Position numbers and translations under genes: made by a program. Positions 4,238 to 24,407 of a DNA stretch of 64,000 nucleotides are shown piece after piece. Source of the stretch: Polyangiales bacterium (GTDB taxonomy: Bacteria > Myxococcota_A > Polyangia > Polyangiales > Ga0077539); NCBI GenBank assembly GCA_044229975.1, contig JBGARZ010000010.1, positions 192,001-256,000 on the forward strand. The letters run 5' to 3'. Numbering within the stretch: the stretch's first letter is position 1; every line of letters starts with the position of its first letter. The notes under the pieces are model-generated. The model was not told the DNA's origin and did not search any database. It saw only the letters and a program-made list of their open reading frames with translations.

Positions 4238-4513
4238 TCAGTGACCGCCGCAGCCGCCGCCTTCGGGCGCGGCCGGGGCCGGAGCGCCGCAGCCACCGCC
4301 TTCGGGCGCGGGCGCCGGAGCGCCGCAACCACCGCCGCCACCGTTGGTGGGCATCTGCGCGGCGTTGAGCGTGTCGCCGTGCACGACGGCCGCCGGGGCG
4401 GGCGCCACGACGGTCTCGGCGGCGGGGCCCTCGACGGGCTCTTCGGTACGGTTGAGGGAGGCCCCCGCGAGGACGAGGGAGAGAGCGCCTGCGTAGCCGA
4501 TCCAGGTCATCAT
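4238..4513 (-). CDS. Small (~91 aa) exported/membrane-anchored peptide with three GGGCG repeats
   Basis: Hydrophobic N-terminus MMTWIGYAGALSLVLAGAS. C-terminus GGGGGCGAPAPAPEGGGCGAPAPAAPEGGGCGGH. Fills the gap between vgrG and the divergent lipoprotein gene. Confidence 0.6.
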   Translation of the reverse strand: MMTWIGYAGALSLVLAGASLNRTEEPVEGPAAETVVAPAPAAVVHGDTLNAAQMPTNGGGGGCGAPAPAPEGGGCGAPAPAAPEGGGCGGH

Positions 4514-4621
4514 GACTTGATGGGATACCCGCTCGGAGGGTCTGGCGTCCAGCCGAGGCGCGCAGGGGGTGACCGCCGCCGCTCCCATCGGAGACCAGAC
4601 CTGCGGTATGAGCCGTGCGCC

Positions 4622-9013: not shown

Positions 9014-9868
9014 CTACCGAATCACCCCCACAAACACCACCGCCCCCAACGCCAGCGCCGCGTAGCGATACCGCAGCCGCACCGCGCGCAACCCCCGCCG
9101 CTCGCCCCGTCGCACCAGCGCTACGATCGTCGCCAGCCACCACGCCGCGAAGGCCGCCGTCGCTCCCGCGAGCGCCCACCGCCCCGCGACGCCGCGCGCG
9201 AGCCACCACGTCACCACCGGCAGCGCCGCGAGCCCGATGGACGCCGCGAGCAGCGCACCGCGCACGCCCGTCACCACGGCCACGGTGAACACTTCACCCG
9301 CCAGATCGTCGTCGCGGTCTTCGGCTTCGTGCAGGAGCTGGCTCACCACCAGGAGCAGCGCGAAGAGCGCGACGAGCAGGCGCAGCGGAGCGCTGGGTGA
9401 GCGCGGCGTGTCGGCCAGGAAGAGGCCGGGGAGGGCGATGACGACGTTCCAGAGCGTGCCGAGGACGGGGACGCGCTTGAGGCGCGGCGGCGCGGAGTAC
9501 ACCGTGGCGGCGACGAGCAGCAGCAGCGTCGGGACGAGGCCCGCGGGCGAGAGCCACGCCGACAGCGCGACCGAGAGCAGCGCCGGCGGAACGGAGAGCA
9601 GCAGGGCCTCGCGGCGACCGAAGCGGAGGCCGACGGGGTTCTTTCCGGCGCGCTGATCGAGGCGATCATCGAAGGCCTGGTTGACCGCCGACATGAAGGC
9701 GAGGGCCATGGTCCAGGCGGCGAGCCCGCCGACGAGGGAGCGCACGCTGCGGGTGTCGCCCGCGCACCAACCGGCCAGCGGGAGCGGGAGGAAGTGCACC
9801 CAGTCGAGCACGCGATAGAGGCGCGCGAGGTCAGCCACGCTGAGCGGTGCGGCGCGGGTTCCGATCAC
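9014..9868 (-). CDS. UbiA-family prenyltransferase (membrane)
   Basis: NQAFDDRLD...KNP, YSAPPRLKRVP and HEAEDRDDD motifs; many TM segments. GTG start overlaps the upstream stop (GTGA). Confidence 0.8.
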   Translation of the reverse strand: MIGTRAAPLSVADLARLYRVLDWVHFLPLPLAGWCAGDTRSVRSLVGGLAAWTMALAFMSAVNQAFDDRLDQRAGKNPVGLRFGRREALLLSVPPALLSVALSAWLSPAGLVPTLLLLVAATVYSAPPRLKRVPVLGTLWNVVIALPGLFLADTPRSPSAPLRLLVALFALLLVVSQLLHEAEDRDDDLAGEVFTVAVVTGVRGALLAASIGLAALPVVTWWLARGVAGRWALAGATAAFAAWWLATIVALVRRGERRGLRAVRLRYRYAALALGAVVFVGVIR

Positions 9869-10887
9869 GGCGCGGAGGTCCCGAGGGCGACGTCGACGGC
9901 GGAGAGGAGGAGGCGCACGTCGAGGTCGAGGATGCGGTTGACCTCGTACGACGGAACGCACGCGCAGCCGGGCCCGGTGGGCGGTGCGAGCTCGTCGAAG
10001 GCGCGGGTGAAGCCGCGCGCGCGGCCGTTGCCGGGCGTGACCTGGGCGCGGGTGAGGAGGCAGTGGGAGACGGTTCCGTCGCTGAAGACGTAGCCGTAGT
10101 AGGTGCCCGCCCAGCAGTGGTCGCAGTCGAGCAGGTAGCGCTGCCCCTCCTGGCGGGCGAGGGAGGCGTCGGAGTTGCCGACGGGCGCGCCCTCGCGCTT
10201 CCGGGCGCGGAGGTGACGCGCGAGCGAGGCGATGCGCTCGTGGCGGATGGACGGGGCGATGGGGCGCAGGACGTCCATGGCGGCGTCGTGTTCGAGCTGG
10301 AAGAAGGCGCGGATGCCGTGGGCGCGCGCGACATCGAGGACGTGGTCGACGTGATCGACGCCGGCCGCGGTGAGCACGGTCATGGTGACGACGGCGACGT
10401 CGCGCGAGCGGAGCGTGTCGATGGCGCGCAACACGCGGGCGTACGAACCAGCATGGCGCTGGCGGTCGTGGAGGCTCTCGGGGCCATCGAGGGTGACGCA
10501 CGCGAGGTCGAGCCCGGCGAGCTCATCGATGCGATCGGGGACGAGCCAGCCGTTGGTGTTCATCGACGCATGAACGCCGCGCTGCTTGAGGTGACGGAGC
10601 ACGTCGGCGAGGCCGCGGTAGAGGAGGGGTTCACCGCCGATGAGGCTGGCGCGGCCCATGCCGCCGGCGTGGAGGTCGTCGATGGCCGCGATCCATTCGG
10701 AGGGCGACATCTCCTCGATGCGCTGAAGCGGGATGTGGCAATAGTCGCAGCGGAAATTGCAGCGGTTGGTGAGCGAGAGCGTCACCTGGAAGGGGCTCTT
10801 GCGGCGCGTGACACGGCGGGCTCCGAGCTGGAGAAGCGGGAGCGCCCGGCGGGCGATGGAGTGCAGCGTGGTGGGTTCGCTGCTCAT
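9865..10887 (-). CDS. Radical SAM protein with a C-terminal SPASM/twitch-like Cys cluster
   Basis: LTNRCNFRCDYC, GGEPLL, NTNG, TLDG; C-terminal CDHCWAG...DGTVSHC...CAC. Confidence 0.92.
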   Translation of the reverse strand: MSSEPTTLHSIARRALPLLQLGARRVTRRKSPFQVTLSLTNRCNFRCDYCHIPLQRIEEMSPSEWIAAIDDLHAGGMGRASLIGGEPLLYRGLADVLRHLKQRGVHASMNTNGWLVPDRIDELAGLDLACVTLDGPESLHDRQRHAGSYARVLRAIDTLRSRDVAVVTMTVLTAAGVDHVDHVLDVARAHGIRAFFQLEHDAAMDVLRPIAPSIRHERIASLARHLRARKREGAPVGNSDASLARQEGQRYLLDCDHCWAGTYYGYVFSDGTVSHCLLTRAQVTPGNGRARGFTRAFDELAPPTGPGCACVPSYEVNRILDLDVRLLLSAVDVALGTSAP

Positions 10888-10954
10888 CGCCGGGCGACGC
10901 TAGCAACGCGCCGCGCGGAGGGTCAAGGCGCGTACCATCGCGGCATCTCACCCG

Positions 10955-12244
10955 ATGCCCCTCTTCCCTCGTCGCCTGCCCCGCGGTCAGCTCTACTTCG
11001 AGCCGCTAGGCGTCCTCGCCGACGCCGTCCGCCGGCTCGGACCGACGCCTCCCGCGGGCTCCGTCGTCCGCCGCTTCGAGCGCGCCTTCGCCGATGAGCT
11101 CGACGCCCCCGCGGCCGTGGCGCTACCCCACGCGCGCGTGGCGCTCCACTACCTCCTGCAGGTGCTCGCGCTGCCGCGCGGCAGTGAAGTCGCGATGACC
11201 CCGGTGACCATCCCCGAGATCGTCTCGGTCGTGCTCATGGCGGGCCTCGTCCCGGTCTTCGTCGACCTCGCGCCGTACACCTGCAACATCGACTGCGACG
11301 ACCTCGCGCGGAAGATCACACCCCGCACCCGCCTCCTCCTCCTCACCCACCTCGGCGGCCTCCCCTCCGAGATGGACTGCGTGATGGCCCTCGCCGCGCA
11401 ACACAACCTGGAGGTGCTGGAGGACTGCTCGCAGGTTCCGGCCACGCGCTATCGCGGCCGTGCGCTCGGTCTCTTCGGTCGCGCGGGCTTCATGAGCCTC
11501 ACGCCGCTCAAGCCGGTCTCCACCTTCCACGGCGGCATGACCATCACCCACGACCGCGCCCTCGAACGCGAGCTCCGCCGCCTCGTCGACGGGTCGCCGC
11601 CGCCGCTGCCGCCGCGCGAGATGCTGCGGCTGCTCGTGCGCGACCAGGTGCTGCACGCGACGACGCACCCGACGGTGTTCTCGCGACTCACCTGGTACGG
11701 GGTGCGCGCGGGCGAGGCGCTGCGCCCGGAGGTGGTGCGCGAGTTTCAGCGGGGCAATCTGTTCAACGACCCGGCGCGGCGACGACGGGTGGTGCGGCTC
11801 GACCGGCTGCCCGATCGGATGCTGGCGCGCTACTCGGACCTGCAAGCGGCCATGGGGCTGCGCGGGCTGCGCACGCTCGCGGCGGGCAACGTGCGTCGGC
11901 GGGAGCTGTCACTGCTGCTATTGGGGCTGCTGCGCGACGCGGGTATTGCGGGGCTCGTGCGCATCCCGGTGGATGAGGGCGACTGCACGTTCTGGCGCTT
12001 CCCGCTGTGGGTGGAGGAGGCATCGCGCATCCCGGCGCTGCGACGGCGACTGCTCGCGCGCGGGGTTGATACGTCGCCGACGAACCTGGAGTGCTGCTCG
12101 CGCGAGGCGGCCTTCGTGGAGCGCAACGCCGACACGCCTGAAGCGCGGAAGTATGTGGATGGGATGATCTTCCTGCCGATGCACCCGGCGCTCACCGAGG
12201 CGGACGTCCGCCGCATCGCGCGCGAGGTGGCCGAGGTCACGTAG
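10955..12244 (+). CDS. DegT/DnrJ/EryC1/StrS-family PLP aminotransferase-like protein
   Basis: FERAFA, PVFVD, THLGG, VLEDCSQ, FMSLTPLKPVSTFHGGM, LPMHPAL. Confidence 0.85.
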   Translation: MPLFPRRLPRGQLYFEPLGVLADAVRRLGPTPPAGSVVRRFERAFADELDAPAAVALPHARVALHYLLQVLALPRGSEVAMTPVTIPEIVSVVLMAGLVPVFVDLAPYTCNIDCDDLARKITPRTRLLLLTHLGGLPSEMDCVMALAAQHNLEVLEDCSQVPATRYRGRALGLFGRAGFMSLTPLKPVSTFHGGMTITHDRALERELRRLVDGSPPPLPPREMLRLLVRDQVLHATTHPTVFSRLTWYGVRAGEALRPEVVREFQRGNLFNDPARRRRVVRLDRLPDRMLARYSDLQAAMGLRGLRTLAAGNVRRRELSLLLLGLLRDAGIAGLVRIPVDEGDCTFWRFPLWVEEASRIPALRRRLLARGVDTSPTNLECCSREAAFVERNADTPEARKYVDGMIFLPMHPALTEADVRRIAREVAEVT

Positions 12245-12281
12245 TACTTCGCCACAGGGGACCTGGAGGGTCGGAGAAGGA

Positions 12282-12372
12282 CCGCAAGGGTCGCAAGGGT
12301 CGCAAGGGTCAGAGGGATGGATACGAGGTGAAGGTCTCTCGCTCGAACGGCTCTTCCCTTGCGTCCCTTGCG
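12282..12372. repeat. Short intergenic 9-bp tandem repeat (CGCAAGGGT x3) with inverted copies (CCCTTGCG x2)
   Basis: Seen directly downstream of the aminotransferase stop; could form a stem-loop. Confidence 0.55.
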
Positions 12373-12480
12373 CGCTGGCGGCCCTTCTCCGAACACGCGT
12401 CGCCCGTCGCTCCGCGACGGTGAGGGGCGTTGGGCTGACGTGAGCGGGTGCTCCGATCGTTCGCGCACTCCCGCTCCCCT

Positions 12481-14325
12481 ATGGCATCGTCGCGCCCCGC
12501 CGTGCGACCCCTTCAGCTCCGCTCGCTTCTCCCCCTGCTCCTCGCCCTCGGCTGCGCCGCGCCCGCGGCCTTCGCTCCCGCCGACGCGGGCGCTCGCCGC
12601 GATGGCACCGCCCTCGATGGCAACGCCGCCTGTGGCCTCTGCGCGGGCCGCTCGTACACGCCCTGCAACGCCGACGGAACACCCGGCCTGCCCGTCGGCT
12701 GCCCCGGCGCGTGCTCGCCCGGCCGCGGGTGTGCGACGTGCGTCCCGGGCCAGTCGGTGTGCGTCGGCAACGACGTGCATCGCTGCGGCGACGACGGTGA
12801 GCCCGGCGCCGTCACCGAGTCCTGCGACGTCGCCAACGCCATGCTCTGCCGCAACGGCGCGTGCGTGTCGGCCTGTCAGACAGCGGAGAACCAGCCTTCC
12901 AACGTCGGCTGCGAGTTCTGGGCGGTCGACCTCGACCAGCAGGACGCCCTCAACGACCCGGCGAGCGCACCGTGGGGCGTCGCCCTCTCCAACGTCGGCG
13001 AGTCGCCCGCGCGTGTCACCGTCGAGATCAACACCGCGCCCGTGGGACAGCCCATCCAGACCACGGTCATCGCCCAGGAGACGGTGAACCCCGGCAGCCT
13101 CCGCCCGCTCGTCCTCCCGACGCGTGAGCTCGACTGCGGCGCGCGACCCAACGACTACGCCGCGCCCGGCACCTGCCTGTCGTCCAACGCGTTTCGCATC
13201 CGGTCGACGTCGCCGATCATCGTCTATCAGTTCAACACCTTCTCCAATTCGTTCTCCAACGACGCGTCGCTGCTGCTGCCCGCCAACTCCCTCGGCCGCG
13301 TGTACCGCGCCATCGGGTGGTCGGCCGGGCACCCGATCCCGCTGCTGGGCATCATCGATCGCGCGTACGTCACGGTGGTCGGCGTGCGACCCAACACCCG
13401 CGTCACGGTGCGGCCGACGTGGCGAATCCGCGGCAACGCCCCGATCATGGCGACCATGCCGGGCGGCGAGATCGTCGCGACCCTCGGGCCCTTCGACGTG
13501 CTCAACCTGGAGACCGCCGACGGCGCCTTCGGCGACGACCTCACCACCATCGCCGACCTCAGCGGAACCTCCGTCGTCACCACCGAACCCGTCGCCGTCT
13601 TCTCCGGGACGGAGTCGTCCATCGCGCCCGGCGGCGCGCTGGAGGTGCCGCGACCCCCGGGCAAGCCCGGTCAGACGTGCTGCCTCGATCACCTCGAAGA
13701 GCAGATGTTTCCGGTGGAGTCCATCGGCACGCGCTACGTGATCCCGCGCAGCGCGGTGCGGTCGACCTCCAGCTTCCGCGAGCCCGACGTCCTGCGCTTC
13801 GTCGGCGCCGCCGAAAACGCGACCGTCACCACCACGCTGCCGGCGCCCTTCGACTCGTTCACGCTGCGCCCCGGCGAGGTGCGCACCACCTGGACGCAAG
13901 ACAACGTCATCGTCTCCTCCGACCGGCCCATCGTCGTGGGGCAGATCCTCGTGAGCAACGGCTACGTCGACGGGCCCTCCATCGGCGACCCGTCGCTCAC
14001 CGTGTTTCCCCCGGTGGATCAGTTTCGCGCGGACTACATCATCCTGACGCCTCCCGGGTGGACGCAGAGCTGGGGCGTCGTCGTCGCCGAGGTCGGCGCC
14101 GAGGTGACCATCGACGGGCGCGCCCCCACCGGGTGCATCGTCGAGCCCGCGGGCCCCCTTGGTGGGGTCACGTACGAATCGCGGCGGTGCCCGCTCAGCG
14201 ACGGCGTGCACCGGCTCGCGGGCGACCGTCCGTTTGGCGTGGTGGTGTACGGCTACGGCGGCGCCGGGTCGTACGCCTTCGTGGGCGGGGCCGACGTGCG
14301 GCGCATCTACGACCCGCCCGGCTGA
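12481..14325 (+). CDS. Lipoprotein with an IgGFc-binding-protein N-terminal-like domain
   Basis: Lipobox LLLALGC; SNVGCEFWAVDLD, PIIVYQFN, SNDASLLLP, DHLEEQMFP, GDPSL, SYAFVGG. Confidence 0.85.
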   Translation: MASSRPAVRPLQLRSLLPLLLALGCAAPAAFAPADAGARRDGTALDGNAACGLCAGRSYTPCNADGTPGLPVGCPGACSPGRGCATCVPGQSVCVGNDVHRCGDDGEPGAVTESCDVANAMLCRNGACVSACQTAENQPSNVGCEFWAVDLDQQDALNDPASAPWGVALSNVGESPARVTVEINTAPVGQPIQTTVIAQETVNPGSLRPLVLPTRELDCGARPNDYAAPGTCLSSNAFRIRSTSPIIVYQFNTFSNSFSNDASLLLPANSLGRVYRAIGWSAGHPIPLLGIIDRAYVTVVGVRPNTRVTVRPTWRIRGNAPIMATMPGGEIVATLGPFDVLNLETADGAFGDDLTTIADLSGTSVVTTEPVAVFSGTESSIAPGGALEVPRPPGKPGQTCCLDHLEEQMFPVESIGTRYVIPRSAVRSTSSFREPDVLRFVGAAENATVTTTLPAPFDSFTLRPGEVRTTWTQDNVIVSSDRPIVVGQILVSNGYVDGPSIGDPSLTVFPPVDQFRADYIILTPPGWTQSWGVVVAEVGAEVTIDGRAPTGCIVEPAGPLGGVTYESRRCPLSDGVHRLAGDRPFGVVVYGYGGAGSYAFVGGADVRRIYDPPG

Positions 14326-14361
14326 GTTACTGTCGCGTCCGCTCCGACGGAGGGCCCGCGC

Positions 14362-15744
14362 ATGGCTGACCAACACGACGAACCCGACAACCCCAACGTC
14401 CCCGGTCACGAGTGGTTCGGGCCGCTCTCGCTGCAACCGCTCAAGCAGTTGGGGAAGTTCGTCAACGAGTGCGACGACTTCACCAAGGAGCTGCGCGTCG
14501 AGAGCCGGTCGTCGGTCTTCAAGGCCCACCCCGGCATCAAGAGCACCTTCATCACCGACATGGCGGGCCTGGAGTTCGTCTTCGACGCGAAGCCCGAAGA
14601 GCTCGACCGACTCAAGGACGAGCACCCGGGCTTCGGCGGCCTGGCGTTCAACCCCCAGATGCTCGGCGACGTGGTGCCCGCGCTCATGACCCACGCGGGC
14701 AATCACGCTCCGGCGCGCAAGCTCATCCTGGAGGTGCTGAAGCTGCGCCGCGCGTCCTTCAAGCCCGCCTGCGAGAAGGTGCTCCACTACGGCATCCCGA
14801 TGCTGCGCGAGGCGCCCCGCGGCACCCCGGTGAACTTCCAGCACGCGATGCACCACGCGGCCATCAGCATCTGCTTCGAGTGGCTCTTCGACCTCACCCT
14901 CGACTCCCCGACCGCGGGCGCCGACGCCGAGAGCTGGATCAAGGGGTGTTTCAGCCTGAGGTCCGATCAGCCCATCGCCAACGCGCTCGCCCGCCTCGTG
15001 GGCCGACTCAAGAACGGCCCCAACGCCAGACAGCGCGACTACGGCGCCAGGACGATGGACGCCATCCGCGGCAGCGCGCCGTACTCGTCCTTCGTCGAGG
15101 TCGCGCGCCAGGTGGGGGTGCCCGAGAACGACGTCGCGGCGCACCTGATGTTCGCGGCCAGCTTCAACGCCACCGGCGGCGCGTGGTCGACGCTGCACCC
15201 GGCCCTCGCGCAGCTCTCCGTCGACGCCGTCACGCGCGCCCGGCTGGCGAAAGAACTCCTCGCGTTTCGCGGCACCGTCTACGAGCTCGACAAGCTCCCG
15301 CACCTCCACGATTTCTTCCTGGAGTCGATGCGCCTCTTCGGCCGTCCGCGTCACTACTACCGCCGCGCGAAGGTCGACCTCGACATCCCCGTGAGCGTCG
15401 GCCCGTCGGTTCACGTCAAGGCAGGCACCACGCTCTGCCTGGTCGCCACCAGCGCCCGCCAGGACCGCACCGTGTGGGGCGACGACGCTGCCATCTTCGA
15501 CCCCGAGCGCTACGCCCGCAAGCCCGAGCTGCGCGCCCGCGTCCACCCCTTCGGCCCGTCACCGAGCTCGCCCAGCCAGTACGGCTGCGCGGGCATGGAA
15601 GACCACGTCGCGGCGATTCTCTGGAAGACGCTCGCCGCCGCGCTCGGCCGCTCCGTCGACTGGAAGCTGTCGCCCTGGCCCGAGCCCGACGTCGACGCCT
15701 TCGCCGGCGTGCGCCCCGCCGAGTTCAAGTGGGTGCGCGAGTAG
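14362..15744 (+). CDS. Cytochrome P450, CYP74-clan-like (allene oxide synthase / hydroperoxide lyase / epoxyalcohol synthase type)
   Basis: ExxR (ESMR), PERF-like FDPERY, heme Cys in PFGPSPSSPSQYGCAG with a loop insertion. I-helix FAASFNATGG has Asn in place of the AGxxT motif. N-terminal VPG..FGP and SSVFK resemble plant CYP74. Confidence 0.82.
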   Translation: MADQHDEPDNPNVPGHEWFGPLSLQPLKQLGKFVNECDDFTKELRVESRSSVFKAHPGIKSTFITDMAGLEFVFDAKPEELDRLKDEHPGFGGLAFNPQMLGDVVPALMTHAGNHAPARKLILEVLKLRRASFKPACEKVLHYGIPMLREAPRGTPVNFQHAMHHAAISICFEWLFDLTLDSPTAGADAESWIKGCFSLRSDQPIANALARLVGRLKNGPNARQRDYGARTMDAIRGSAPYSSFVEVARQVGVPENDVAAHLMFAASFNATGGAWSTLHPALAQLSVDAVTRARLAKELLAFRGTVYELDKLPHLHDFFLESMRLFGRPRHYYRRAKVDLDIPVSVGPSVHVKAGTTLCLVATSARQDRTVWGDDAAIFDPERYARKPELRARVHPFGPSPSSPSQYGCAGMEDHVAAILWKTLAAALGRSVDWKLSPWPEPDVDAFAGVRPAEFKWVRE

Positions 15745-15753
15745 GCGCGGGCG

Positions 15754-15977
15754 CCGGAGTTCGCGTGCCCCCATGAGCCGGGGTGCAGTCGCTCACTCCG
15801 GGCTATTTCACGTGCTCACCTCGCGGCGCGAGGTTGCGGTAGCTCGGGGTTGCCGATGAACGGTCAATGGGTCGTCCATTGAGGTCAGTGCTGCAACCCC
15901 GCGCCGCGGGGTGACAACCTGAAATAGCCCGGAGTGAGCGACTGCACCCCGGCTCATGGGAGGCACGCGAACTCCGG
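15754..15977. repeat. Second long palindrome (REPIN-like) between convergent genes
   Basis: Arms 15754-15838 and 15891-15977 (~85 bp, few mismatches, one indel) with a ~52-bp loop. Core TCACCCCG...CGGGGTTGCAG is shared with the 6513 element. Confidence 0.88.
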
Positions 15978-16006
15978 GGCCCACCGCGCGCTCGGATGAG
16001 CCCCGA

Positions 16007-17647
16007 TCAGATGGAGACGCCGGTCTCCAGGTAGCGCGGGTTGAAGGTCTCGCACGGCCACGGGCGCTCCGGGTCGGCCTTGCGGCGGACGTTGGCGGCG
16101 TCGATGTCGGCGGACAGCGCCGCGAGGGCGTCGTGGAAGCGCGCGAAGGCGGCGCGGCCGAGGTGGTCGGCGTCGAAGACCCCGGCGGCGTCGCCGAGGT
16201 CCATGAGCTGGGGCATCTGGAGGCCCGTGAGCGCCATCACGAGCAGCGCCTGCATCGACGCCTGGATGTCGGACATCTCCTGCCCCGCGCGAATCTTGGT
16301 GCCCATGAACGTCGGGTCGAGCACGTACTCGTGCACGGTGCCGACGGCCTCGTGCAGCCCCGTCACGCTCCAGATGAACTGCGCGAGCACGTCGATGAGC
16401 GACTCCCGCGAACGCCCCGGAAACTTCACCGTGGCGGGCGCGGTGTTGAGGTGGTTCCAGAAGCCGATGACGGCGAGGTCGTCCATGACGGCCTTCTCGT
16501 CCTTCGCATACTGGCCGATGTAATCGACCACGAACGCGTGGATCACCTCGTACAGCTTCAGCGCGTCGGTGGCCCACGGAAACCGGTCGCCCATCCCCGC
16601 GGCCTTCTTGTGCTCGATGAGCTGCGGCACCGTGTAGAAGCGCATGAGCCCGACCGCGTCGCCGAAGGCGTGCGTGAGGGCGTCGTATTCGAGCGCGCTC
16701 GACCGGTGCACGAACCCGCGCTCGGGGCACAGCGTGTCGCACGCCCCGGCGTTGATGGTGATGGTCCGCCAGGTGAAGGGCTTGAGCAGCAGCCGCAGGT
16801 AGTGCGTGGGCGGCAGCTTGATGCGCGCCGCGGTGGTCACGTAGTTGGCGATGATCCAGTGCACGCCGACGAGGTGATCGACCACCGTGGTGCCGACCAT
16901 CAACGAGCACCGCCAGGCCCACTTCGCGTGCTCCCACTCCCGGTTGATCGGCTGCCCCGGCTTCGGGGGATGGACCCACCGCTTCCCTTCGCTCCAGAAG
17001 ATCGCGATGGGCTTCTGGTCGGCGTCGAAGACCGCGCGCGCCCCGTAGTGCTCGAAGCCGTCGCGAACCTTGTACCGCGAGAGGAAGGTCAGGTCGTGCT
17101 GCCACGTCGCGCCGACGAGCTCCCTGGCGGGGTCGTCCGTGGCCTGCTTGTAGGGCAGCAGTCGCAGCGCGGCGAGCCCGGCAAACGCGAGCCGCGACAT
17201 GGCGGCGTCGGACTGCATCTCGTCCCAGTGGTGGTACGGCCGGGCCATGTACGAGCCGAGCGGCAGAACCTTCTGGAAGGTGTCGCGCGCCTCTTCCGCG
17301 CTCCCCCACCGCTCCTTCGGGTCGGTCACCGGGAAGAAGTAGTTGTTGCGCAGCAGCCACAGGAAGGCGCGCCGCTTCCAGTCGGCCGCGGGCCAGTCCT
17401 CATCCTCCTTGGGGAGTTGCAGCCGGTTGTCGTCGCTGCCGAAGGGCATCGGCAGGAGATCGGTCTTGCCCGACAGGCGCGGCGGCCGGACCTTGTCGAC
17501 CGTGGGCAGGTCGCTCTTCCACTGCTTGATCGCCCCTTTGATCATCTTGAGGAACAGCCGCGTGTGGCGGTCGAGCTTCTTCACGCGAACCGACGCGGCG
17601 CCGTAGGTGATGGCGGCGTCCGTGGTGGCGAGGGCGGCGGTGGACAT
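16007..17647 (-). CDS. Lipoxygenase (catalytic domain only)
   Basis: WEHAK, DHLVGVH (H-x4-H), HYLRLLLKPF, TITINAGA, TGLHEAVG, C-terminal GVSI (terminal Ile metal ligand). Confidence 0.92.
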   Translation of the reverse strand: MSTAALATTDAAITYGAASVRVKKLDRHTRLFLKMIKGAIKQWKSDLPTVDKVRPPRLSGKTDLLPMPFGSDDNRLQLPKEDEDWPAADWKRRAFLWLLRNNYFFPVTDPKERWGSAEEARDTFQKVLPLGSYMARPYHHWDEMQSDAAMSRLAFAGLAALRLLPYKQATDDPARELVGATWQHDLTFLSRYKVRDGFEHYGARAVFDADQKPIAIFWSEGKRWVHPPKPGQPINREWEHAKWAWRCSLMVGTTVVDHLVGVHWIIANYVTTAARIKLPPTHYLRLLLKPFTWRTITINAGACDTLCPERGFVHRSSALEYDALTHAFGDAVGLMRFYTVPQLIEHKKAAGMGDRFPWATDALKLYEVIHAFVVDYIGQYAKDEKAVMDDLAVIGFWNHLNTAPATVKFPGRSRESLIDVLAQFIWSVTGLHEAVGTVHEYVLDPTFMGTKIRAGQEMSDIQASMQALLVMALTGLQMPQLMDLGDAAGVFDADHLGRAAFARFHDALAALSADIDAANVRRKADPERPWPCETFNPRYLETGVSI

Positions 17648-17670
17648 ACCGCCCACTGTATCAAAGGTCG

Positions 17671-19536
17671 CTACCGCACCAGCACCTGCGGGTGCGCGAA
17701 CAACGCCACCCCGTCCACCCGCACCGTGACCTGGTGCAGTCCCGCGGCGAGCCCGCGCGCCGTCGCGGTGTATGTGCCGTTGCCCTCGTCGCTCACCGTC
17801 AGCGCCACGTCACCGGGCGCCATCGTCACCGCGACCCGGTGTCCCCCGCCCAGCAGTCCACCGTCGGGTCGCGCGGGCCGCACCGTCACCCGCGCATCAC
17901 CGCCCGCCGCCACCATCGGCGGCTCCACCGTCAGCCAACGGGGCTCTTCCACCACGACCTCGGCGCCCGCCAGCACGGGCCCGGAGCGCTGCACATAGCC
18001 GTCGGGCCAGCGCACCTCCACGGACTCTGCGCGGGGCCAGCCCGCGAGCCCGTACACCAGCCGGTGCTCGCCGTAGCCCCACGGCGCGCCGCCGCTCTGC
18101 ATCTCCTGCACGAGCAGCCGCGACCCGACGCGCGCGCTCACCTTCGCGCCGACGCCTTCGGAGTTGGAGACGGTTCCGCGCAGGCGCACCGCGAACGATC
18201 GCCCGCCCACCACCTCGTTGCGCAGGAGGCGCGGGGCCATGCTGGTTCCGCCCATCCAGTAGTCGGTGCGGCCGTCGCGATCGAGGTCGCTGCCAGTCAC
18301 CCAGAAGCTCGTGTACGTGCCCACCTGATGCAGCAGCGGCGTCGCCTCGGTGAACACCCCGTCGCCGCGGTTGTGCCGCAGAAACGCCGTCGGTGGTGTG
18401 TAGAACCCGTCGGTTACGCCGACGGCGACGACGAGGTCGGGCCAGGTGTCGTTGTCGTAGTCGGCGAAGCTCGCCCCGAAGGCCACGGTCTCGGCCTCGG
18501 AGGGGTGCAGCATCGGGAGGTCGATGCCCGCCTGCGCCGCGACGTCCACGCGTCCACCGCGGTGCGTGTAGAGGTGCTGCGGACCGATATCCAACAGGTA
18601 CAGGTCGAGCTTCGCGTCGCCGTCGACGTCGGCGGAGGCCGCGCCCATGAGGGCCGCGGGGTTGTACTCGGGGCCGAAGTAGAGCCGGTCGAAGGTCTCC
18701 TCGACGTAGGGCCGCGACGACGACGACGAGGTGCGATGCAGGTAGCGCGCGGGCGGCCCGAGCTGCTCGTCGAAGAGCAGGAAGAGGTCGGTCAGCCCGT
18801 CGTCATCGACGTCCATGAAGAAGTTGGACCAGCTCGCGCCCAGCGTCTCGCCGAAGGTCTCGGTCATGGATTCGACCCAGGTTCCGTCCGGGCGGCTCAG
18901 GTACATCCGCACGGGCGCGTCGGCGTCGAGCACGTGGCGCGTGACGAGGTCGAGGCGGCCGTCGAGGTTGATGTCCGAGAGGTCGACGCCGGAGAACATC
19001 GCGCCGCGCGTGGCGTTCCACGGACCGAAGCCCCACGCGACGCTGACGTCCTCGAAGCGGCAGTTGCCCTGGTTGCGATACACCCGCAGCTCGGGGCGAA
19101 ACGGGCCCATTCCCCCCATCTGCGCGCGGACGAACTCCGACGCGCTGATGGACACGATGAGGTCGGGTCGTCCGTCGTTGTCGAGGTCGCCGAAGGCCGC
19201 GGCGGTCGGTCCCTCGCGGTCGGCGCCGGGCAGCGCTCCGAGAGACTCGAAGTGGAAGTTGCCGGTGTTGCGCCAGAGCACGCCGCGGCTGCTCCACCCG
19301 AAGACGTAGGCGTCGGGGAGGCCGTCGGCGTCGCAGTCCCCGATGGCCGCGGCGTTGACGGCGCCCATGCGGGGGAAGGGCCATCCGCCGATCTCGTCGA
19401 GGCGCACACCCGACGTGGCGAACTGGTCGACGAAGCCGCGCGAGTCGTCGTAGCGAACCGTCGGCGGGGCCATCGTGGCGGGCGCGTCGGAGCAGCCCGC
19501 GAGGGCGGCGAGCAGGAGGGCGGACCTACGCCTCAT
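17671..19536 (-). CDS. CRTAC1/ASPIC-UnbV-family lipoprotein with FG-GAP repeats
   Basis: Lipobox LAALAGC; repeats GDCDADG, GDLDNDGRPD, DINLDGRLD, DYDNDTWPD; UnbV-like RLVYGL...VEVRWPDG. Confidence 0.88.
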   Translation of the reverse strand: MRRRSALLLAALAGCSDAPATMAPPTVRYDDSRGFVDQFATSGVRLDEIGGWPFPRMGAVNAAAIGDCDADGLPDAYVFGWSSRGVLWRNTGNFHFESLGALPGADREGPTAAAFGDLDNDGRPDLIVSISASEFVRAQMGGMGPFRPELRVYRNQGNCRFEDVSVAWGFGPWNATRGAMFSGVDLSDINLDGRLDLVTRHVLDADAPVRMYLSRPDGTWVESMTETFGETLGASWSNFFMDVDDDGLTDLFLLFDEQLGPPARYLHRTSSSSSRPYVEETFDRLYFGPEYNPAALMGAASADVDGDAKLDLYLLDIGPQHLYTHRGGRVDVAAQAGIDLPMLHPSEAETVAFGASFADYDNDTWPDLVVAVGVTDGFYTPPTAFLRHNRGDGVFTEATPLLHQVGTYTSFWVTGSDLDRDGRTDYWMGGTSMAPRLLRNEVVGGRSFAVRLRGTVSNSEGVGAKVSARVGSRLLVQEMQSGGAPWGYGEHRLVYGLAGWPRAESVEVRWPDGYVQRSGPVLAGAEVVVEEPRWLTVEPPMVAAGGDARVTVRPARPDGGLLGGGHRVAVTMAPGDVALTVSDEGNGTYTATARGLAAGLHQVTVRVDGVALFAHPQVLVR

Positions 19537-20512
19537 GCGCGACGGCTCCGGGCGTGAGCGGGAGCTTGCGGAAGTACGCCACGAGGAAGCCCAGGTAGCT
19601 GCGTCGCACCTCCACGTCGGGTCGTCCCGCGAGCAGGGGTTGGAGTCGGGGGAGGTTGTAGTAGGGCACGTACGGCCACAGGTGGTGCTCCGCGTGGAGG
19701 TTGAGATGGTAGGGCGAGAACAGCGCCCGCTCGACGGCTCCCGGCGCGAAGGTGATGAGGCGCAGCGGGTCGGCCGCCGCGTCGGGCAGCACCGGCACCG
19801 CGTGCTCGCAAAACATCCTGATCTTGTGCGGAACAAACACCAGCGGATAGACCGGCGCGATCCAGAACGCGAGGTAGTACCAGGCCGGGAAGCGCGACCA
19901 GATGGCGAGGAAGATCATCGCCTGCGCCGCGAGCGTTGCACCTCGCCGTCGAACGAATCCCTTGAGCGCCTCGGCGAAGGGCGTCGGAGTCGAGGGACCG
20001 GCGCCGCCGTGGAGGGCCTTGTGTAGAGCGCGCGGAAACATGGTGAGCCCGGTGAGGAAGAGCACGAAGTCGAGGCGCGTGGACTTGTCGACGACCGAGT
20101 AGAGGTAGCGGTCGGGGTCGTCCTCGGTGGCGAGGAGCTGGTGGTGACGCCCGTGGTTCTTGCGCTCGCCGTGGAAGTCGACGCCGACCGGGGCGCAGAG
20201 CGCAGCCTGGGCGAAGAGGTCGTTGGTGCGGCGGCGCGCGAAGAGCGTGCGGTGGTCGCCCTCGTGGGTGAGCACCGACAGCGCGTACTGCCGGTTGCCG
20301 ATGACGAGGAAGGCGACGACGGCGCTCCACCACGTCGGCGCGCGAGCGAGCAGGACGAAGGCGAGGAGGATGGTCGCGTAGCAGAGGGCGGTGTCGGCGA
20401 CGACGCGCCACGGGCGATGCTGGAGCACCTCGCGGAGGAGAGGACTGCCCGGTGGGAGCAGCCGTCGGCCGAGGGCCTCGGGGTCGAGCACCGCAGGTGG
20501 CAATCGGCTCAC
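19526..20512 (-). CDS. Membrane fatty-acid desaturase family protein
   Basis: Three His boxes HEGDH, HGRHH, HAEHH, plus FCEH; TM segments. GTG start overlaps the upstream stop. Confidence 0.9.
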   Translation of the reverse strand: MSRLPPAVLDPEALGRRLLPPGSPLLREVLQHRPWRVVADTALCYATILLAFVLLARAPTWWSAVVAFLVIGNRQYALSVLTHEGDHRTLFARRRTNDLFAQAALCAPVGVDFHGERKNHGRHHQLLATEDDPDRYLYSVVDKSTRLDFVLFLTGLTMFPRALHKALHGGAGPSTPTPFAEALKGFVRRRGATLAAQAMIFLAIWSRFPAWYYLAFWIAPVYPLVFVPHKIRMFCEHAVPVLPDAAADPLRLITFAPGAVERALFSPYHLNLHAEHHLWPYVPYYNLPRLQPLLAGRPDVEVRRSYLGFLVAYFRKLPLTPGAVAHEA

Positions 20513-21633
20513 GAGTGCCGCCCGAGCAGCGCCCCGACGCGCCCGGTGAAGGAGTCGTAGAGGCGGCTCATCTCGACGAGGTCGAGGTTGCGCGCGTACG
20601 ACGACTCCCAGCACATGCAGCCGTAGTCGCGGGACTGCATGTGCTCGCGCGCTTCGTTCGCGCGGTGGGCCCGCCAGAGGTCGTCGAGCTCGGCGTCGAC
20701 GAGGCTCCCGATGTGCGAGTCGGCGCGGCCGTGGCAGAGCTTCACCGCGCCGTTGGCCTCCACCACCGCCGTCGTCGCCGGAACCAACAGACACCGGAAC
20801 CCGATGTCCTTCTGGAGCGCCTCGCGCTCGAAGACGTAGCGCGGCAGCAGGTCGTAGTAGCGGCCCGCGAGGAAGGGGTGGCGCGCGCGCAGCGCGGCGT
20901 AGGCGCGCTCGAACTCCGGGCGGTCTTCGGGGCGGAAGAGGCAGCTCCGGTCGCGCACCTGATGGAGCCCGTTGTCCTGGATGATCTGGAAGAGAACGTT
21001 GTCCGCGTGCTCGCTCCAGTGGTCGATGAAGGCGTCGAGATCGCGGTAGTTGTGGCGGTTGATGGTGCAGCGCACCTGCACCCGCGGCCCGTCGGTCGTG
21101 CGTCGCGCGCGCAGCTCGTCGGCGGCCTTCTCGACGCGGTCGAAGAGCCCGGCGCGCCCGCGGAAGGCGTCGTGCTTCGCGGCCTCGGCGGCGTCGACGC
21201 TGAGGGTCACCACGTCGATGCCCGCGTCGAGCACGGCGTCGACGTGGCGCCCGAGGCGGTCGCCGCTGGTTCCGATGAAGACGCGCTTGCCGCCGTCCTT
21301 CAAGGTGCGCGCGAGCTCGAACACTCCATCGACCAGGAGCGGTTCGCCGCCGATGAGGGACACGCCCCAGGCGTCGCTCGCGGCCAGCTTGCGGGCGACG
21401 GTGAGACGTTGCGCGCGGGTGAGCTCGTCGGGGAGCGGGCGGTTCATGGAGCAGTGGGCGCAGGCGAGGTTGCACGCCTCGGTGACGGCCCAGCTCAGGA
21501 AGACGGGGTTCTTCGCGCGCAGCACCGGCAGCGCGGTGCTGGCGATGTTGCGGGCCAGCGGAACAAGCGCTGGACCGAGGTCGCCGAGGGTGACGCCCGT
21601 GGTCGTGGGGGTGGTTCTCTGGCGGGGCGACAT
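20509..21633 (-). CDS. Radical SAM/SPASM-like protein
   Basis: VTEACNLACAHC, GGEPLL, LSVD; C-terminal CLVP...NGAVKLC...IGSL...CMCWESS. Start codon uncertain. Confidence 0.9.
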   Translation of the reverse strand: MSPRQRTTPTTTGVTLGDLGPALVPLARNIASTALPVLRAKNPVFLSWAVTEACNLACAHCSMNRPLPDELTRAQRLTVARKLAASDAWGVSLIGGEPLLVDGVFELARTLKDGGKRVFIGTSGDRLGRHVDAVLDAGIDVVTLSVDAAEAAKHDAFRGRAGLFDRVEKAADELRARRTTDGPRVQVRCTINRHNYRDLDAFIDHWSEHADNVLFQIIQDNGLHQVRDRSCLFRPEDRPEFERAYAALRARHPFLAGRYYDLLPRYVFEREALQKDIGFRCLLVPATTAVVEANGAVKLCHGRADSHIGSLVDAELDDLWRAHRANEAREHMQSRDYGCMCWESSYARNLDLVEMSRLYDSFTGRVGALLGRHS

Positions 21634-21723
21634 CGGGGGTGCTTCTGCCGGAGTCTCGACGCTCGCACGCATCGGGGCGGCGAGGCAACGACCGCCGTGG
21701 GCGTAGCTGCGCTGACGCGGTCC

Positions 21724-22527
21724 ATGGGAGACTCCGCGGCGCCCATGCGCGAGATGACCCCCGTCGAGCGGATCAAGCCGCCGTCCCCGGAGGAGTTCGA
21801 GGAGCGCTACGTGCGCCCGTCCCGTCCGGTGATCTTGCGCGGCGCCATCGACCACTGGCCTGCGCTGCGGTGCTGGTCGCGCGACTACTTCAAGCGCCGC
21901 TTCGGCGACCGCAGCGTGCCGGTCATCCGCAAGAAGGGCGGAGCGATGTACGACGCCAGCGCGGGGCTCTTCTACGAGCGCATGCGCGTGGCGGACTACG
22001 TCGACCAGCTCACCGAGGCGCGGCCGAGCGACCTGTACATGGTGTTTCGGGTGCACGAGGTGCTGCCGGAGATCTTCGACGACATCGCGCGCCCGGCGTA
22101 CTGCCATGACGCGAGCTGGTACCGCGCGCGGTTCTGGTTTGCGGCGCCCGACACCAAGGGGCCGCTGCACCGCGACCTGCCCGAAAACCTCTACGCGCAG
22201 GTGTCGGGTCACAAGCAGTTCGTGATGATCGACCGTCGGCTCACACGGATGGTGCACCGTCATGCGTTCTACTCGGGCGTTCCCAACTACAGCCCGGTGG
22301 ACGCCGAGGAGCCCGACCTGCTGCGCCACCCGCGCTTCCGTGACGCTCCGCGGATGCTGGCCACGCTGGAGCCCGGCGACCTCTTCTACATCCCGAGCAT
22401 GTGGTGGCACCAGGCGCACTCCCTCGACCTGAGCCTCTCGGTGAACCTCTGGTGGGCCCGCGGCTGGATGGTGCCGGTGGTGAGGGCGGCGGAGGCGTTC
22501 ATGAAGGTGCGCGACCTGAAGCTGTGA
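21724..22527 (+). CDS. JmjC/cupin-8 Fe(II)/2-oxoglutarate oxygenase
   Basis: PVILRGAIDHWPA, LHRD..ENL, LEPGDLFYIPSMWWH, SLSVNLWW. Confidence 0.9.
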   Translation: MGDSAAPMREMTPVERIKPPSPEEFEERYVRPSRPVILRGAIDHWPALRCWSRDYFKRRFGDRSVPVIRKKGGAMYDASAGLFYERMRVADYVDQLTEARPSDLYMVFRVHEVLPEIFDDIARPAYCHDASWYRARFWFAAPDTKGPLHRDLPENLYAQVSGHKQFVMIDRRLTRMVHRHAFYSGVPNYSPVDAEEPDLLRHPRFRDAPRMLATLEPGDLFYIPSMWWHQAHSLDLSLSVNLWWARGWMVPVVRAAEAFMKVRDLKL

Positions 22528-23306
22528 GGTCCGCGACGCTGATCCCCCGCACCGCCGCCCCCACCGCGGAGCGCTTCGAGCGCGACCACCGCGCGCCTGG
22601 CCGCCCGGTGGTGCTCACCGACCTCCTCGACGGCGTGGCCCTCCGCGGCGCCCTCGACCTCGCCCGACTGCGCGAGCAACACGGTGCGTCTGCGGTTCCC
22701 GTTGCGCGCATGCGCGGCGATGACCTCGTCGTCGACCCGGCCCGCGGCATCGCGCAGGACCCCGTCGCGCTCGGTGACTTCCTCGACGGCCTCGCCGCCG
22801 GCGCCTCGCGCGGCTACCTCATGGCGCGCGCCGAACAGCTCCCACCCGCGCTCCGTCGCGAGCTCGTGGCGCCGCGGTATTGCGACGGCGCTCCGTGGGT
22901 CGTCTCCAAGCTCTGGGTGGCCTCCGCGGACACCGTGTCGGCGCTCCACCGCGACCTCGCCGACAACCTCCATACGGTGGTCGATGGCGAGAAGCTCTTC
23001 ACCCTCGTCTCGCCCTCACAGGACGATCGGGTGTATCCGCACGGCCTGCTCGCGGGGCTGCCCAACGCGGCGCGCGTCGACCTCGATCGGCCCGACTACG
23101 AGCGCCATCCCCGCTCGCGCGCCATCGAGACGGTGACGGCGCGGCTCTCTCCCGGCGAGACCATCTTCATCCCGCACGGGTGGTGGCACCACGTCCGGAC
23201 GGTGCGCGGCAGCGTCTCCATCAACACCTGGTGGGCGCGCGGAACCCGCCTCCCCATCGTGGCGCTCGCCGACTGGTTCAAGCGGGTGCGCGGGCTCAGC
23301 CGCTAG
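22524..23306 (+). CDS. JmjC/cupin-8 Fe(II)/2-oxoglutarate oxygenase (paralog)
   Basis: PVVLTD, LHRDLADNL, LSPGETIFIPHGWWHHV, SVSINTWW. GTGA coupling to the previous gene. Confidence 0.88.
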   Translation: MRSATLIPRTAAPTAERFERDHRAPGRPVVLTDLLDGVALRGALDLARLREQHGASAVPVARMRGDDLVVDPARGIAQDPVALGDFLDGLAAGASRGYLMARAEQLPPALRRELVAPRYCDGAPWVVSKLWVASADTVSALHRDLADNLHTVVDGEKLFTLVSPSQDDRVYPHGLLAGLPNAARVDLDRPDYERHPRSRAIETVTARLSPGETIFIPHGWWHHVRTVRGSVSINTWWARGTRLPIVALADWFKRVRGLSR

Positions 23307-24337: not shown

Positions 24338-24407
24338 CCGGCGTTGGTAGCCCGCGGGTCGAGAGACGGTCAATCACGCGGAGAGTTGCGGTAGAGTCCG
24401 CGCCATC

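Follow-up and report, generated by a model that had tools for sequence, protein, structure and literature searches.

A lipoxygenase gene paired with a CYP74-related cytochrome P450 gene in a Polyangiales bacterium: a likely two-step route to oxylipins

Described two-step routes and the present locus

Plants make jasmonates and green-leaf volatiles by way of a lipoxygenase (LOX) and then a hydroperoxide-rearranging P450, and a two-step coupling of an oxygenase with a hydroperoxide-rearranging haem enzyme is also found in the catalase-like allene oxide synthase (AOS)-LOX fusions of corals and cyanobacteria and in the dioxygenase-P450 fusions of fungi. In the coral and cyanobacterial proteins the second enzyme has a catalase fold, and in the fungal ones the first is a haem dioxygenase, whereas the locus reported here encodes a P450 fold and a non-haem LOX in separate genes. 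The CYP74 family and clan comprise plant AOS, hydroperoxide lyase (HPL), DES and epoxyalcohol synthase (EAS), metazoan CYP440 and CYP443, and the Methylobacterium nodulans HPL; the CYP5164 clan comprises the hydroperoxide bicyclases CYP50918A1 (Plasmodiophora brassicae) and Ectocarpus CYP5164A3, together with the Ectocarpus EAS CYP5164B1. A 2024 review treats CYP5164 as a clan separate from CYP74 (PMC10813956), and an older, wider usage of the CYP74 clan takes in CYP5164B1. In the literature consulted, named CYP5164-clan members come from SAR eukaryotes only (brown algae and Plasmodiophora), and bacterial examples are confined to Methylobacterium CYP74-clan genes.

In Myxococcus xanthus, presumably of the same phylum as the present bacterium, a LOX and an epoxide hydrolase carry polyunsaturated fatty acids (PUFAs) through a hydroperoxide and an epoxyalcohol to a triol, a similar route yielding hepoxilins and trioxilins; there the LOX itself forms the epoxyalcohol, locus tags show the hydrolase gene to be non-adjacent, and putative TXA synthases were inactive (PMC5760719). 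Here, in contrast, a dedicated CYP74-related P450 is paired with a divergent, Gly-ligand LOX. A LOX also adjoins a P450 without the normal acid-alcohol pair on plasmid pNFSY07 of Nostoc flagelliforme; that P450 has IHIAGTAGTS in the I-helix, with no Asn, reaches 33 bits on the profile of the window P450 family and falls outside its clade, and its LOX has the usual HAAVN, unlike the Gly of the window LOX. Judged by these features, this one cyanobacterial example is of a different P450 lineage.

In the window (the whole 64,000-nucleotide stretch analysed), the P450 and LOX genes face each other, 262 bp apart (Table 1), with GTG 17656 as an alternative to the ATG 17647 start of the LOX. Open reading frame calls, Pfam and alignments, including one of 48 LOX rows, agreed with the first-pass annotation, which had described a LOX with H-x4-H, a third His and a C-terminal Ile converging on a P450. 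The pair varies a pathway type that is already known, and the two enzymes probably act one after the other to produce lipid-based signals, a route for which the literature consulted gave no bacterial description. Both proteins are small, a signal peptide is not evident in either, and they could be co-expressed to find the product.

Table 1. Features of the LOX-P450 locus (window positions)
Feature	Position	Strand	Remarks
Cytochrome P450 gene	14362..15744	+	460 aa; Pfam p450 E 2e-5
Phe91, F/L-toggle position (SRS-1)	14632..14634	+	F in 27/27 aligned homologues
I-helix groove FAASFNATGG, residues 264-273	15151..15180	+	Asn269; replaces AGxxT oxygen-activation motif
Haem-thiolate loop FGPSPSSPSQYGC, lengthened, up to Cys409	15550..15588	+	alignments
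Intergenic palindromic repeat, ~225 bp	15745..16006	none	nested inverted arms
Lipoxygenase gene	16007..17647	-	546 aa; Pfam Lipoxygenase E 6e-14

Motifs and relatives of the P450

The features listed for the CYP74 clan are an I-helix Asn, an F/L toggle, an ERR triad together with a cysteinyl haem ligand, a PPV motif and a nine-residue haem-loop insertion (PMC8124189). The first three are present in the window P450. As had been proposed, its I-helix groove stands in place of AGxxT; it aligns with LFATCFNTWGG of Arabidopsis AOS (AtAOS), with Asn269, present in 27/27 aligned homologues, opposite the FN of AtAOS, and CYP50918A1 reads FLVQFNGVAG at the same site. Phe91 pairs with the Phe of the AOS 'DLFTG' in AtAOS (via the profile A3 alignment) and is probably the counterpart of AtAOS Phe137, and the triad (E321, R324, R383) and haem ligand C409 are invariant in the same 27 homologues. 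The other two features are where the claim of CYP74 hallmarks did not hold in full. After ExxR the P450 has G-R-P-R-H instead of PPV, where H-P-P-V or something near it stands in the CYP74-clan rows shown and M-G-P-R-V in CYP50918A1. The insertion before the haem Cys is real but two residues short of CYP74: G398 and C409 enclose 10 residues, where Arabidopsis AOS has 12 and the FxxGxxxC motif 3, giving an insertion of 7 rather than nine on the CYP74 register. Neither the ordinary-monooxygenase signature (A/G)Gx(D/E)T nor the short FxxGxxxC loop occurs in the protein.

With CYP50918A1 and brown-algal proteins the P450 has in common an SRS-1 LDR...FG, the I-helix FN, a P-R after ExxR and an aromatic-GC end of the haem loop (ARFGC in CYP50918A1, MPWGC in a brown-algal protein), an end lacking from the displayed rows of the CYP74 clan, for example NKLC and NHHC. 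It differs from CYP50918A1 in being bacterial and in its shorter haem loop (10 vs 17 residues).

In a single-sequence PDB search, BM3 variants alone made up the best 60 of 116 matches, so profiles and folds were needed. The family profile gave CYP74A as top PDB match (E 1e-7), and a wider profile again placed CYP74A first over nearly the full length (E 6.5e-26). With the AF2 model (pLDDT 88), the six best fold matches were CYP74A (TM 0.74-0.77, Z 30.6-31.3; next Z 29.8), at 16-18% identity in structure alignments, which is under the >40% family criterion for CYP74, CYP74A being the subfamily compared.

These best fold matches are AOS, and the I-helix LMFAASFNATGG closely resembles AtAOS LLFATCFNTWGG; moreover, the toggle Phe is reported across all AOSs (PMC10813956). 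The P450 of the same pathway might then be a plant-style AOS leading to ketols or cyclopentenones. However, plant EASs carry the toggle Phe too (PMC10813956), and because AOS are the only CYP74 entries among the PDB matches listed, the fold match cannot pick the product. Characterised enzymes of the CYP5164 side are EAS or bicyclases, and the epoxide hydrolase fusions of some relatives would suit a stable epoxide over a short-lived allene oxide. We therefore regard the AOS reading as decidedly unlikely.

By phmmer the P450 matched CYP50918A1 at E 6.5e-21 (25% identity, 437 columns) and the brown-algal protein P0102 at E 1.4e-31, with family-profile scores of 160 and 186 bits, respectively, against 60-90 for CYP74-clan rows. 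On these comparisons CYP50918A1, a protist enzyme acting on oxidised fatty acids, which it rearranges, is its closest characterised relative, and by the 40% rule their 25% identity would make the window P450 a separate family. In trees whose non-outgroup rows were all phmmer matches of the window P450, 50 CYP74-like rows split from 16 ordinary P450s with support 100/99, which answers the suggested phylogenetic check against monooxygenases. A 36-row clade joined the P450, CYP50918A1 and brown-algal relatives (counted as CYP5164 by inference) at 100/99, and at 99 under a mixture model with 4 long rows dropped. This clade is sister to, not within, the CYP74-clan clade matching AtAOS at E 5e-76, in trees built without named plant CYP74, the Methylobacterium HPL and Ectocarpus CYP5164B1; a profile search for named plant and Methylobacterium CYP74 sequences found 0 among 14 matches. 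Joining 9 close rows to 14 CYP74-clan rows, groups named after the first tree, was disfavoured by the AU test (p=0.009).

Thus, as far as alignments and trees can place it, the P450 is CYP74-related and lies on the CYP5164 side, outside the narrow-sense CYP74 clan and inside the wide-sense one, in one clade with CYP74-like enzymes and apart from monooxygenases. The earlier assignment to the CYP74 clan holds as to type, a predicted fatty-acid hydroperoxide isomerase and not an ordinary monooxygenase, but not as to the clan proper. The bacterial group of the clade sits outside the eukaryote subclade, and such a branch bears on the origin of algal epoxyalcohol and bicyclase chemistry. A plasmid search with the P450 returned a Nocardia P450 as sole match (26.6% identity over half its length), and the Acaryochloris plasmid P450 matched by a CYP74-clan query was set aside as an ordinary P450 with no LOX nearby.

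The lipoxygenase family, gene pairing and surroundings

The LOX ligands H258-x4-H263 and H432 were present in 48/48 aligned rows and the C-terminal Ile (I546) in 40/48. The AF2 model (pLDDT 92) had lipoxygenases throughout among the fold matches listed, and the protein belongs to a divergent family with a lipoxygenase fold, in which the three His and C-terminal Ile/Leu ligands are found. At the Coffa site it has Ala302 (S-type Ala in 46/48 rows), and S-type stereochemistry is predicted.

The first-pass annotation overlooked that the Asn/His/Ser ligand position, four residues past the third His, is Gly436 in 48/48 rows. The available portion of PMC10968607 gives His, Gln and Ser as variants at this Asn site, with no Gly, and the window LOX represents a family in which a metal-ligand site carries Gly.

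The co-location of LOX and P450 across related genomes, which had been put forward as a check, was found in 15 of the 16 related loci, in about eight distinct neighbourhoods and in three arrangements (convergent, divergent and divergent-with-fusion). In most convergent relatives the genes almost touch, and in a 42%-identical relative they are separated by 5.4 kb. Among 401 genomes of the phylum, the close LOX family occurred in 4, three of which also had the close P450; in the fourth, the LOX gene reaches the contig end on the side usually holding the P450. The window P450 differs from the CYP5164 clan in being encoded beside its own LOX. Furthermore, relatives of the P450 are fused as P450-ACBP-LOX (4 proteins), P450-LOX, patatin-P450, haem peroxidase-P450 and epoxide hydrolase-P450 (P0023, P0025 and L010; best PDB match an epoxide hydrolase, E 3.5e-26). 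In a 97% complete genome (G189) with a more distant member of the clade, the P450 adjoins a patatin gene and LOX was not found. A haem-peroxidase dioxygenase as alternative partner was matched in 0/5 genomes, and the control likewise had no match anywhere.

The P450 is patchily distributed (3/8 same-genus genomes, 0/16 other same-family genomes searched), and of its 11 genome loci three appear damaged, by a frameshift (L002), an in-frame TAG (L003) and a deletion (L008), which may be assembly errors or decay. With Gly436 and the BM3 variants heading the single-sequence search, these data could suggest an ordinary or decaying monooxygenase or an inactive LOX, adjacent through shared inheritance only. 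Against this, the BM3 matches are weak (E 0.004-0.007) and confined to the C-terminal part, the P450 has no acid-alcohol pair and is parted from ordinary P450s by the 100/99 branch, linkage persists through rearrangement, and the H-E-x-x-G motif is kept in the two P450-LOX fusions that have a LOX grouping with the window family. We consider such an explanation improbable.

The intergenic palindrome is a genome-wide element outside the pathway; with 39 sites 150 bp or longer across 15 contigs of the genome, it was rejected as a feature of the module. The flanking IgGFc-binding and ASPIC/FG-GAP genes were rejected as parts of the module since they were matched in none of the 16 related loci. A scan of 12000-20100 gave 0 promoter-like and 2 terminator-like sites, not above shuffles. 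As previously stated, no ferredoxin or reductase gene was nearby, none of these families being matched among the window ORFs scanned (sets of 9 and 43), which is weak evidence because the redox partners of bacterial P450s are often encoded far away.

Proposed pathway, product and signalling context

Product class aside, the motifs, the folds, the tree, the gene pairing, the fusions in relatives and, as to substrate, a PUFA-synthase cluster elsewhere in the genome point very probably to a coupled pathway from LOX to a hydroperoxide-rearranging P450. In such a route, a polyunsaturated fatty acid would be dioxygenated by the LOX to a predicted S-hydroperoxide, and the P450, needing neither O2 nor a reductase, would rearrange this product, most likely to an epoxyalcohol. 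By analogy with CYP74 and CYP5164 enzymes, the haem iron and Asn269 would cleave the O-O bond (PMC10813956, section 4), ring closure of the alkoxy radical would produce an epoxyallylic radical, and rebound of the hydroxyl would yield the epoxyalcohol, which an epoxide hydrolase, P450-fused in some relatives, could open to a triol. Calling the module self-contained, as was done before, is fair for the window but not for relatives, which add an epoxide hydrolase, patatin or kinase-cyclase gene.

The identities to CYP50918A1 and CYP74A are too low for the product class to be read from sequence. Placement on the CYP5164 side makes epoxyalcohols or bicyclic oxylipins the lead candidates, and Phe91 disfavours HPL (lyase) chemistry; from the original list of AOS, EAS and HPL, the EAS type now leads, HPL recedes and bicyclic oxylipins enter. 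If the hydroperoxide is turned over, we put an epoxyalcohol at slightly under an even chance; an allene oxide or ketol would be unlikely, a bicyclic oxylipin equally so, a lyase or divinyl ether type product doubtful, and any other very improbable.

A hydroperoxide bicyclase in the same pathway, turning omega-3 hydroperoxides into bicyclic oxylipins of the plasmodiophorol or ectocarpin kind, would agree with CYP50918A1, the nearest named characterised relative, being a bicyclase, whose substrates are 13S-HPOT and 15S-HPEPE (PMC12843491). The S-type Ala of the LOX fits as well, as does a PUFA-synthase cluster in the genome (G000:C10, 41.6-58.4 kb), with PfaD and PfaA above curated cut-offs and a PfaB/C-like gene. 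Set against the 25% identity and a bacterial group branching outside the eukaryote subclade, this reading appears to us rather unlikely, and the epoxyalcohol remains our preferred product.

A signalling role of the LOX-P450 products is suggested by a giant kinase-AAA-GAF-cyclase gene that often adjoins LOX genes in the phylum (at least 15 of 36 genomes). The gene is missing, however, from the window and from L001, L002, L003/L008 and L005/L007/L016, and some loci have patatin, thiolase and enoyl-CoA hydratase genes close by, so that the pair might serve fatty-acid handling instead, disposing of hydroperoxides or degrading PUFAs obtained from food or prey, lyase cleavage being one way. We find this unlikely, since a LOX makes hydroperoxides and does not remove them, Phe91 speaks against lyase chemistry, and a thiolase or hydratase neighbour was seen in one case each, whereas the kinase-AAA gene turns up repeatedly.

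Returning to signalling, a speculative reading, to which we give a low probability, is that a mostly unnamed and partly bacterial P450 radiation holds the eukaryotic CYP5164 clan, and that a myxobacteria-like module would turn home-made PUFAs into epoxy or bicyclic oxylipins read by the giant kinase-AAA-TPR-GAF-cyclase, in a full lipid-hormone circuit (synthesis, rearrangement and receptor) with the LOX as a new four-protein-ligand class. For the question of what bacterial oxylipins do, the recurrent kinase-AAA-GAF-cyclase neighbour offers a candidate receptor.

The lipoxygenase and P450 gene pair

In the source genome (G000; 10.0 Mb, 39 contigs, 93% complete), the cytochrome P450 and lipoxygenase (LOX) reading frames converge on a gap of 262 bp, and the motifs reported by the first-pass annotation were all located, namely FAASFNATGG in place of AGxxT in the I-helix and the loop insertion of the P450, and H258-x4-H263, the third His (H432) and the C-terminal Ile of the LOX. 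The claimed absence of a neighboring ferredoxin or reductase gene also held, no such Pfam family being matched in the sets of 9 and 43 window ORFs scanned. The palindromic repeat between the two genes was ruled out as a pathway feature by its 39 copies, approximately 75-88% alike, on 15 contigs of G000. The flanking genes on both sides look like one biosynthetic set, between whose halves lie IgGFc, P450, LOX and ASPIC genes.

Features of the window, of G000 and of a Nostoc plasmid
Feature	Location	Strand	Details
P450 ORF	window 14362-15744	+	460 aa; Pfam p450 E 2e-5 (weak)
LOX ORF	window 16007-17647	-	546 aa; Pfam Lipoxygenase E 6e-14
Palindromic repeat, MITE- or REP-like	window 15745-16006		~225 bp; P450-LOX gap
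Module flanks	window 9014-12244 and 19526-24373		UbiA-like, two radical SAM, DegT aminotransferase, desaturase-like, two Cupin_8/JmjC, SGNH-like
VgrG-like gene	window 2121-4184		phage baseplate hub, OB and gp5 trimer domains
ORFs without annotation	window 224-1612 and 4076-6505		alongside VgrG-like gene
ORF without Pfam match	window 7154-8902		582 aa; five tandem EPAVEA(S/Q)V repeats; transposase-like by eye
SpoVR-like gene with intein	window 30771-33770		LAGLIDADG domain in intein; next after DUF444 gene; lower-GC stretch
Ordinary LOX + kinase-cyclase	G000:C19:443452-452702 (L082)
Ordinary LOX + kinase-cyclase	G000:C32:481270-489620 (L083)
Module-type LOX fragment	G000:C24:51669-52223 (L026)		C-terminal, residues 361-546; 65% identical; no adjoining P450
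PUFA-synthase cluster	G000:C10:41572-58437 (L032, L033)		three genes: PfaD, PfaA, PfaB/C-like
LOX + P450 + 186-aa hypothetical gene	L089:6287-10328		Nostoc flagelliforme plasmid pNFSY07

A P450 beside CYP50918A1 and algal proteins

The P450 does not belong with the ordinary monooxygenases. Its haem loop (G398 to Cys409) has 10 residues, against 12 in the Arabidopsis allene oxide synthase (AOS) and 3 in ordinary P450s, and all 27 rows of close homologues carry F91, N269, E321, R324, R383 and C409. A single-sequence PDB search gave only weak matches to BM3 variants among the top 60 rows; the profile of the 27 close homologues (52-86% identity) had Arabidopsis AOS as its top match (E 1e-7), with the I-helix aligned to LLFATCFNTWGG, and a wider 29-row profile was led, near full length, by CYP74A2 and then CYP74A (E 6.5e-26 and 1.1e-22). 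Similarly, Foldseek ranked six CYP74A chains on top for the AlphaFold model (pLDDT 88; TM 0.74-0.77), and VIA-align placed the same chains first (Z 30.6-31.3, next 29.8; rmsd 3.5, ~423 aligned). Among the CYP74 features listed in the accessible text of PMC8124189, the I-helix Asn, toggle, ERR triad and Cys were found. The PPV motif is missing, as it is from CYP50918A1, and the insertion falls short of the full nine residues.

An exhaustive phmmer search returned 124 matches, including P0102, a protein of the brown alga Nemacystus (E 1.4e-31), P0115, which is the Plasmodiophora hydroperoxide bicyclase CYP50918A1 (E 6.5e-21), and proteins from chytrids, Chrysoparadoxa, Lithocolla, Ploeotia and Tectomicrobia. 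A weaker second set (best E 2.6e-17), to which a Trichoplax protein belongs, is of the CYP74 clan, its profile matching Arabidopsis AOS at E 5e-76. All non-outgroup rows of our trees are matches of the window P450, with group names given after the first tree and without named plant CYP74, Methylobacterium hydroperoxide lyase (HPL) or Ectocarpus sequences. In the careful 66-row tree, whose bootstrap had not fully settled, the P450 shared a clade of 36 rows with CYP50918A1 and the algal proteins (support 100/99), 14 CYP74-clan rows formed the sister clade (99/98), and 16 ordinary P450s split from both (100/99). A quick mixture-model tree minus four long rows again put it with the CYP50918A1 side (support 99), and an AU test rejected forcing nine close rows onto the CYP74-clan rows (p=0.009). 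The P450 family profile scored P0102 at 186 bits, CYP50918A1 at 160 and CYP74-clan rows at 60-90, and pairwise identity to CYP50918A1 was 25% over 437 columns. Sister position and AU test rule out the CYP74 clan proper; judged by phylogeny and profiles, the P450 belongs instead to the CYP5164 side, beside CYP50918A1 and the algal proteins. Thus, the proposed separation from monooxygenases stands, and the clan assignment does not.

Nine proteins from metagenomes belong to the CYP74 clan proper, being of the FNAWGG, WxxG...C type, and are likely of bacterial origin (P0124, P0128, P0148, P0159, P0162, P0163, P0173, P0179 and P0202, the last fused to a LOX).

The lipoxygenase and the proposed chemistry

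The LOX is a genuine, though divergent, lipoxygenase by the fold of its AlphaFold model (pLDDT 92), for which every Foldseek match listed is a lipoxygenase at 15-21% identity. By the Coffa-site rule, Ala goes with S stereochemistry, and Ala302 at this site (46/48 rows) predicts an S product. The three His are invariant, and Gly occupies the position of the Asn in the Pseudomonas LOX HAAVN motif in 48/48 rows; the variants given for this ligand site in the accessible part of PMC10968607 are His, Gln and Ser, Gly not being among them. A quick LOX tree groups this family with the LOX portions of two P450-LOX fusions, which have the family's H-E-x-x-G motif as well; that grouping carries a long-branch warning. 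An N-terminal fragment of this LOX family lies on contig C10 of genome G307.

All of the pathway chemistry is what we infer for the two proteins: most likely, the LOX would make an S-hydroperoxide, and the P450 would split this at its haem and Asn269 into an epoxyallylic radical, which the accessible text of PMC10813956 describes as a common intermediate. The same text associates toggle Phe with AOS and epoxyalcohol synthase (EAS), and toggle Leu with HPL and divinyl ether synthase (DES), and a lyase or DES appears improbable here. Characterised CYP5164-side enzymes comprise, in the sources as accessible, one EAS and two bicyclases. A hydrolase is fused to the P450 in P0023, P0025 and locus L010 (epoxide hydrolases in 13/14 PDB rows; best E 3.5e-26), which may suit a stable epoxide. 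We tentatively rank EAS first, at somewhat under an even chance, whereas AOS and bicyclase are about equally unlikely. The module, a directly testable pair of proteins, would be a bacterial variant of a pathway of known type; the earlier reading as a LOX-P450 hydroperoxide pathway is partly supported, with the clan moved to the CYP5164 side.

Fusions in relatives point the same way as LOX-P450 coupling. A domain scan of 47 phmmer matches found four P450-ACBP-LOX proteins of 1225-1460 aa (P0089, P0091, P0129, and P0113 from the chytrid Siphonaria), two P450-LOX proteins, one on the CYP74-clan side, and single cNMP-patatin-P450 (P0110) and haem peroxidase-P450-GDPD (P0122, Lithocolla globosa) fusions. 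A P450-C2 protein was seen in Ploeotia (P0116).

Conservation, known systems and genomic partners

LOX-P450 pairing is conserved. A module-type LOX lay within the fetched stretch at 15 of 16 P450-profile loci (11 genomes, 5 metagenomes), the P450 of the 16th beginning at a contig edge; these 15 are not independent, shared neighbors reducing them to approximately eight neighborhoods. The two genes converge in 13 loci and diverge in L011 and L010, the L010 P450 also carrying a fused hydrolase at its N-terminus. Of 28 P450 homologues, 11 apparently shared a source assembly with a LOX homologue (indirect match). The profile matched 4/401 phylum genomes (four candidates scored per genome), and gave no match in the 35 genomes with a Pfam LOX match other than G000 (36/401 LOX-bearing in all). 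The close LOX family (>780 bits) occurred in four: G000, G307 and G397, which have the P450 (42% identical and 5.4 kb from the LOX in G397), and G242, where a module-type P450 was not found and the LOX runs off its contig. Three observations weigh against conserved pairing. In G189, without LOX match, a distant P450-clade member adjoins a patatin; the P450 was apparently broken in L002, L003 and L008; and it was present in 3/8 same-genus and 0/16 other same-family genomes, which may overlap the 16 loci and were kept out of locus counts. The L002 record bears the title Klebsiella pneumoniae, yet myxobacteria-like genes surround its copy of the module (68-73% identity); it is probably a mislabelled bin.

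The known myxobacterial route combines a LOX with a separate epoxide hydrolase (accessible text of PMC5760719), whereas the module pairs the LOX with a P450. A literature search, with most subscription journals outside its scope, returned no bacterial CYP5164-type P450, myxobacterial LOX-P450 pair or LOX-kinase-cyclase link, and none appears in the accessible parts of PMC13319228, which reviewed bacterial LOX in 2026, and of a preprint (10.1101/2022.06.21.497025); trees in the primary CYP50918A1 paper, outside this scope, might contain bacterial sequences. Unlike the window P450 with its Asn269, the Nostoc pNFSY07 P450 has no I-helix Asn or acid; because of this, its 33 bits on the family profile and its position outside the clade (tree with seven long rows dropped), it is considered a separate lineage.

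The L004 group, L009, L010 (ending before GAF at the contig end) and L025 each have a kinase-AAA-GAF-cyclase gene (~1800 aa) next to the module; in L006 a cyclase lies between P450 and LOX genes, and in L011 a cNMP-binding protein adjoins the LOX. The 64-kb window contains no such gene, but G000 has two full-length copies, both no more than 2.6 kb from an ordinary LOX. Among 15 other LOX loci, a kinase-AAA gene adjoined the LOX in nine, with a cyclase end in five, a histidine kinase in one, neither in two and one cut. At L066, L067, L069, L072-L076 and L078, ordinary LOX genes, often tandem, adjoin a giant gene that encodes a Ser/Thr kinase-AAA-TPR-GAF-cyclase or, in its place, a histidine kinase. 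Place comparison added five genomes outside the training alignment, and therefore adjacency holds in at least 15/36 LOX genomes; the reverse fails, since the kinase-cyclase profile matched 63 genomes and the majority of these gave no LOX match. LOX and kinase-cyclase are a candidate oxylipin-sensing module, in which the kinase-cyclase protein would, as a hypothesis, sense the oxylipin.

Myxobacterial PUFA genes have reportedly been the subject of a study (PMC8436480). PUFA supply in G000 is likely, since PfaD and PfaA over cut-offs and a PfaB/C-like protein are encoded in one cluster. Four of five further genomes also encode PfaA over cut-off, and one of these four lacks the module; Pfa genes are therefore permissive, not specific. 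A 1620-aa ORF follows the G000 cluster.
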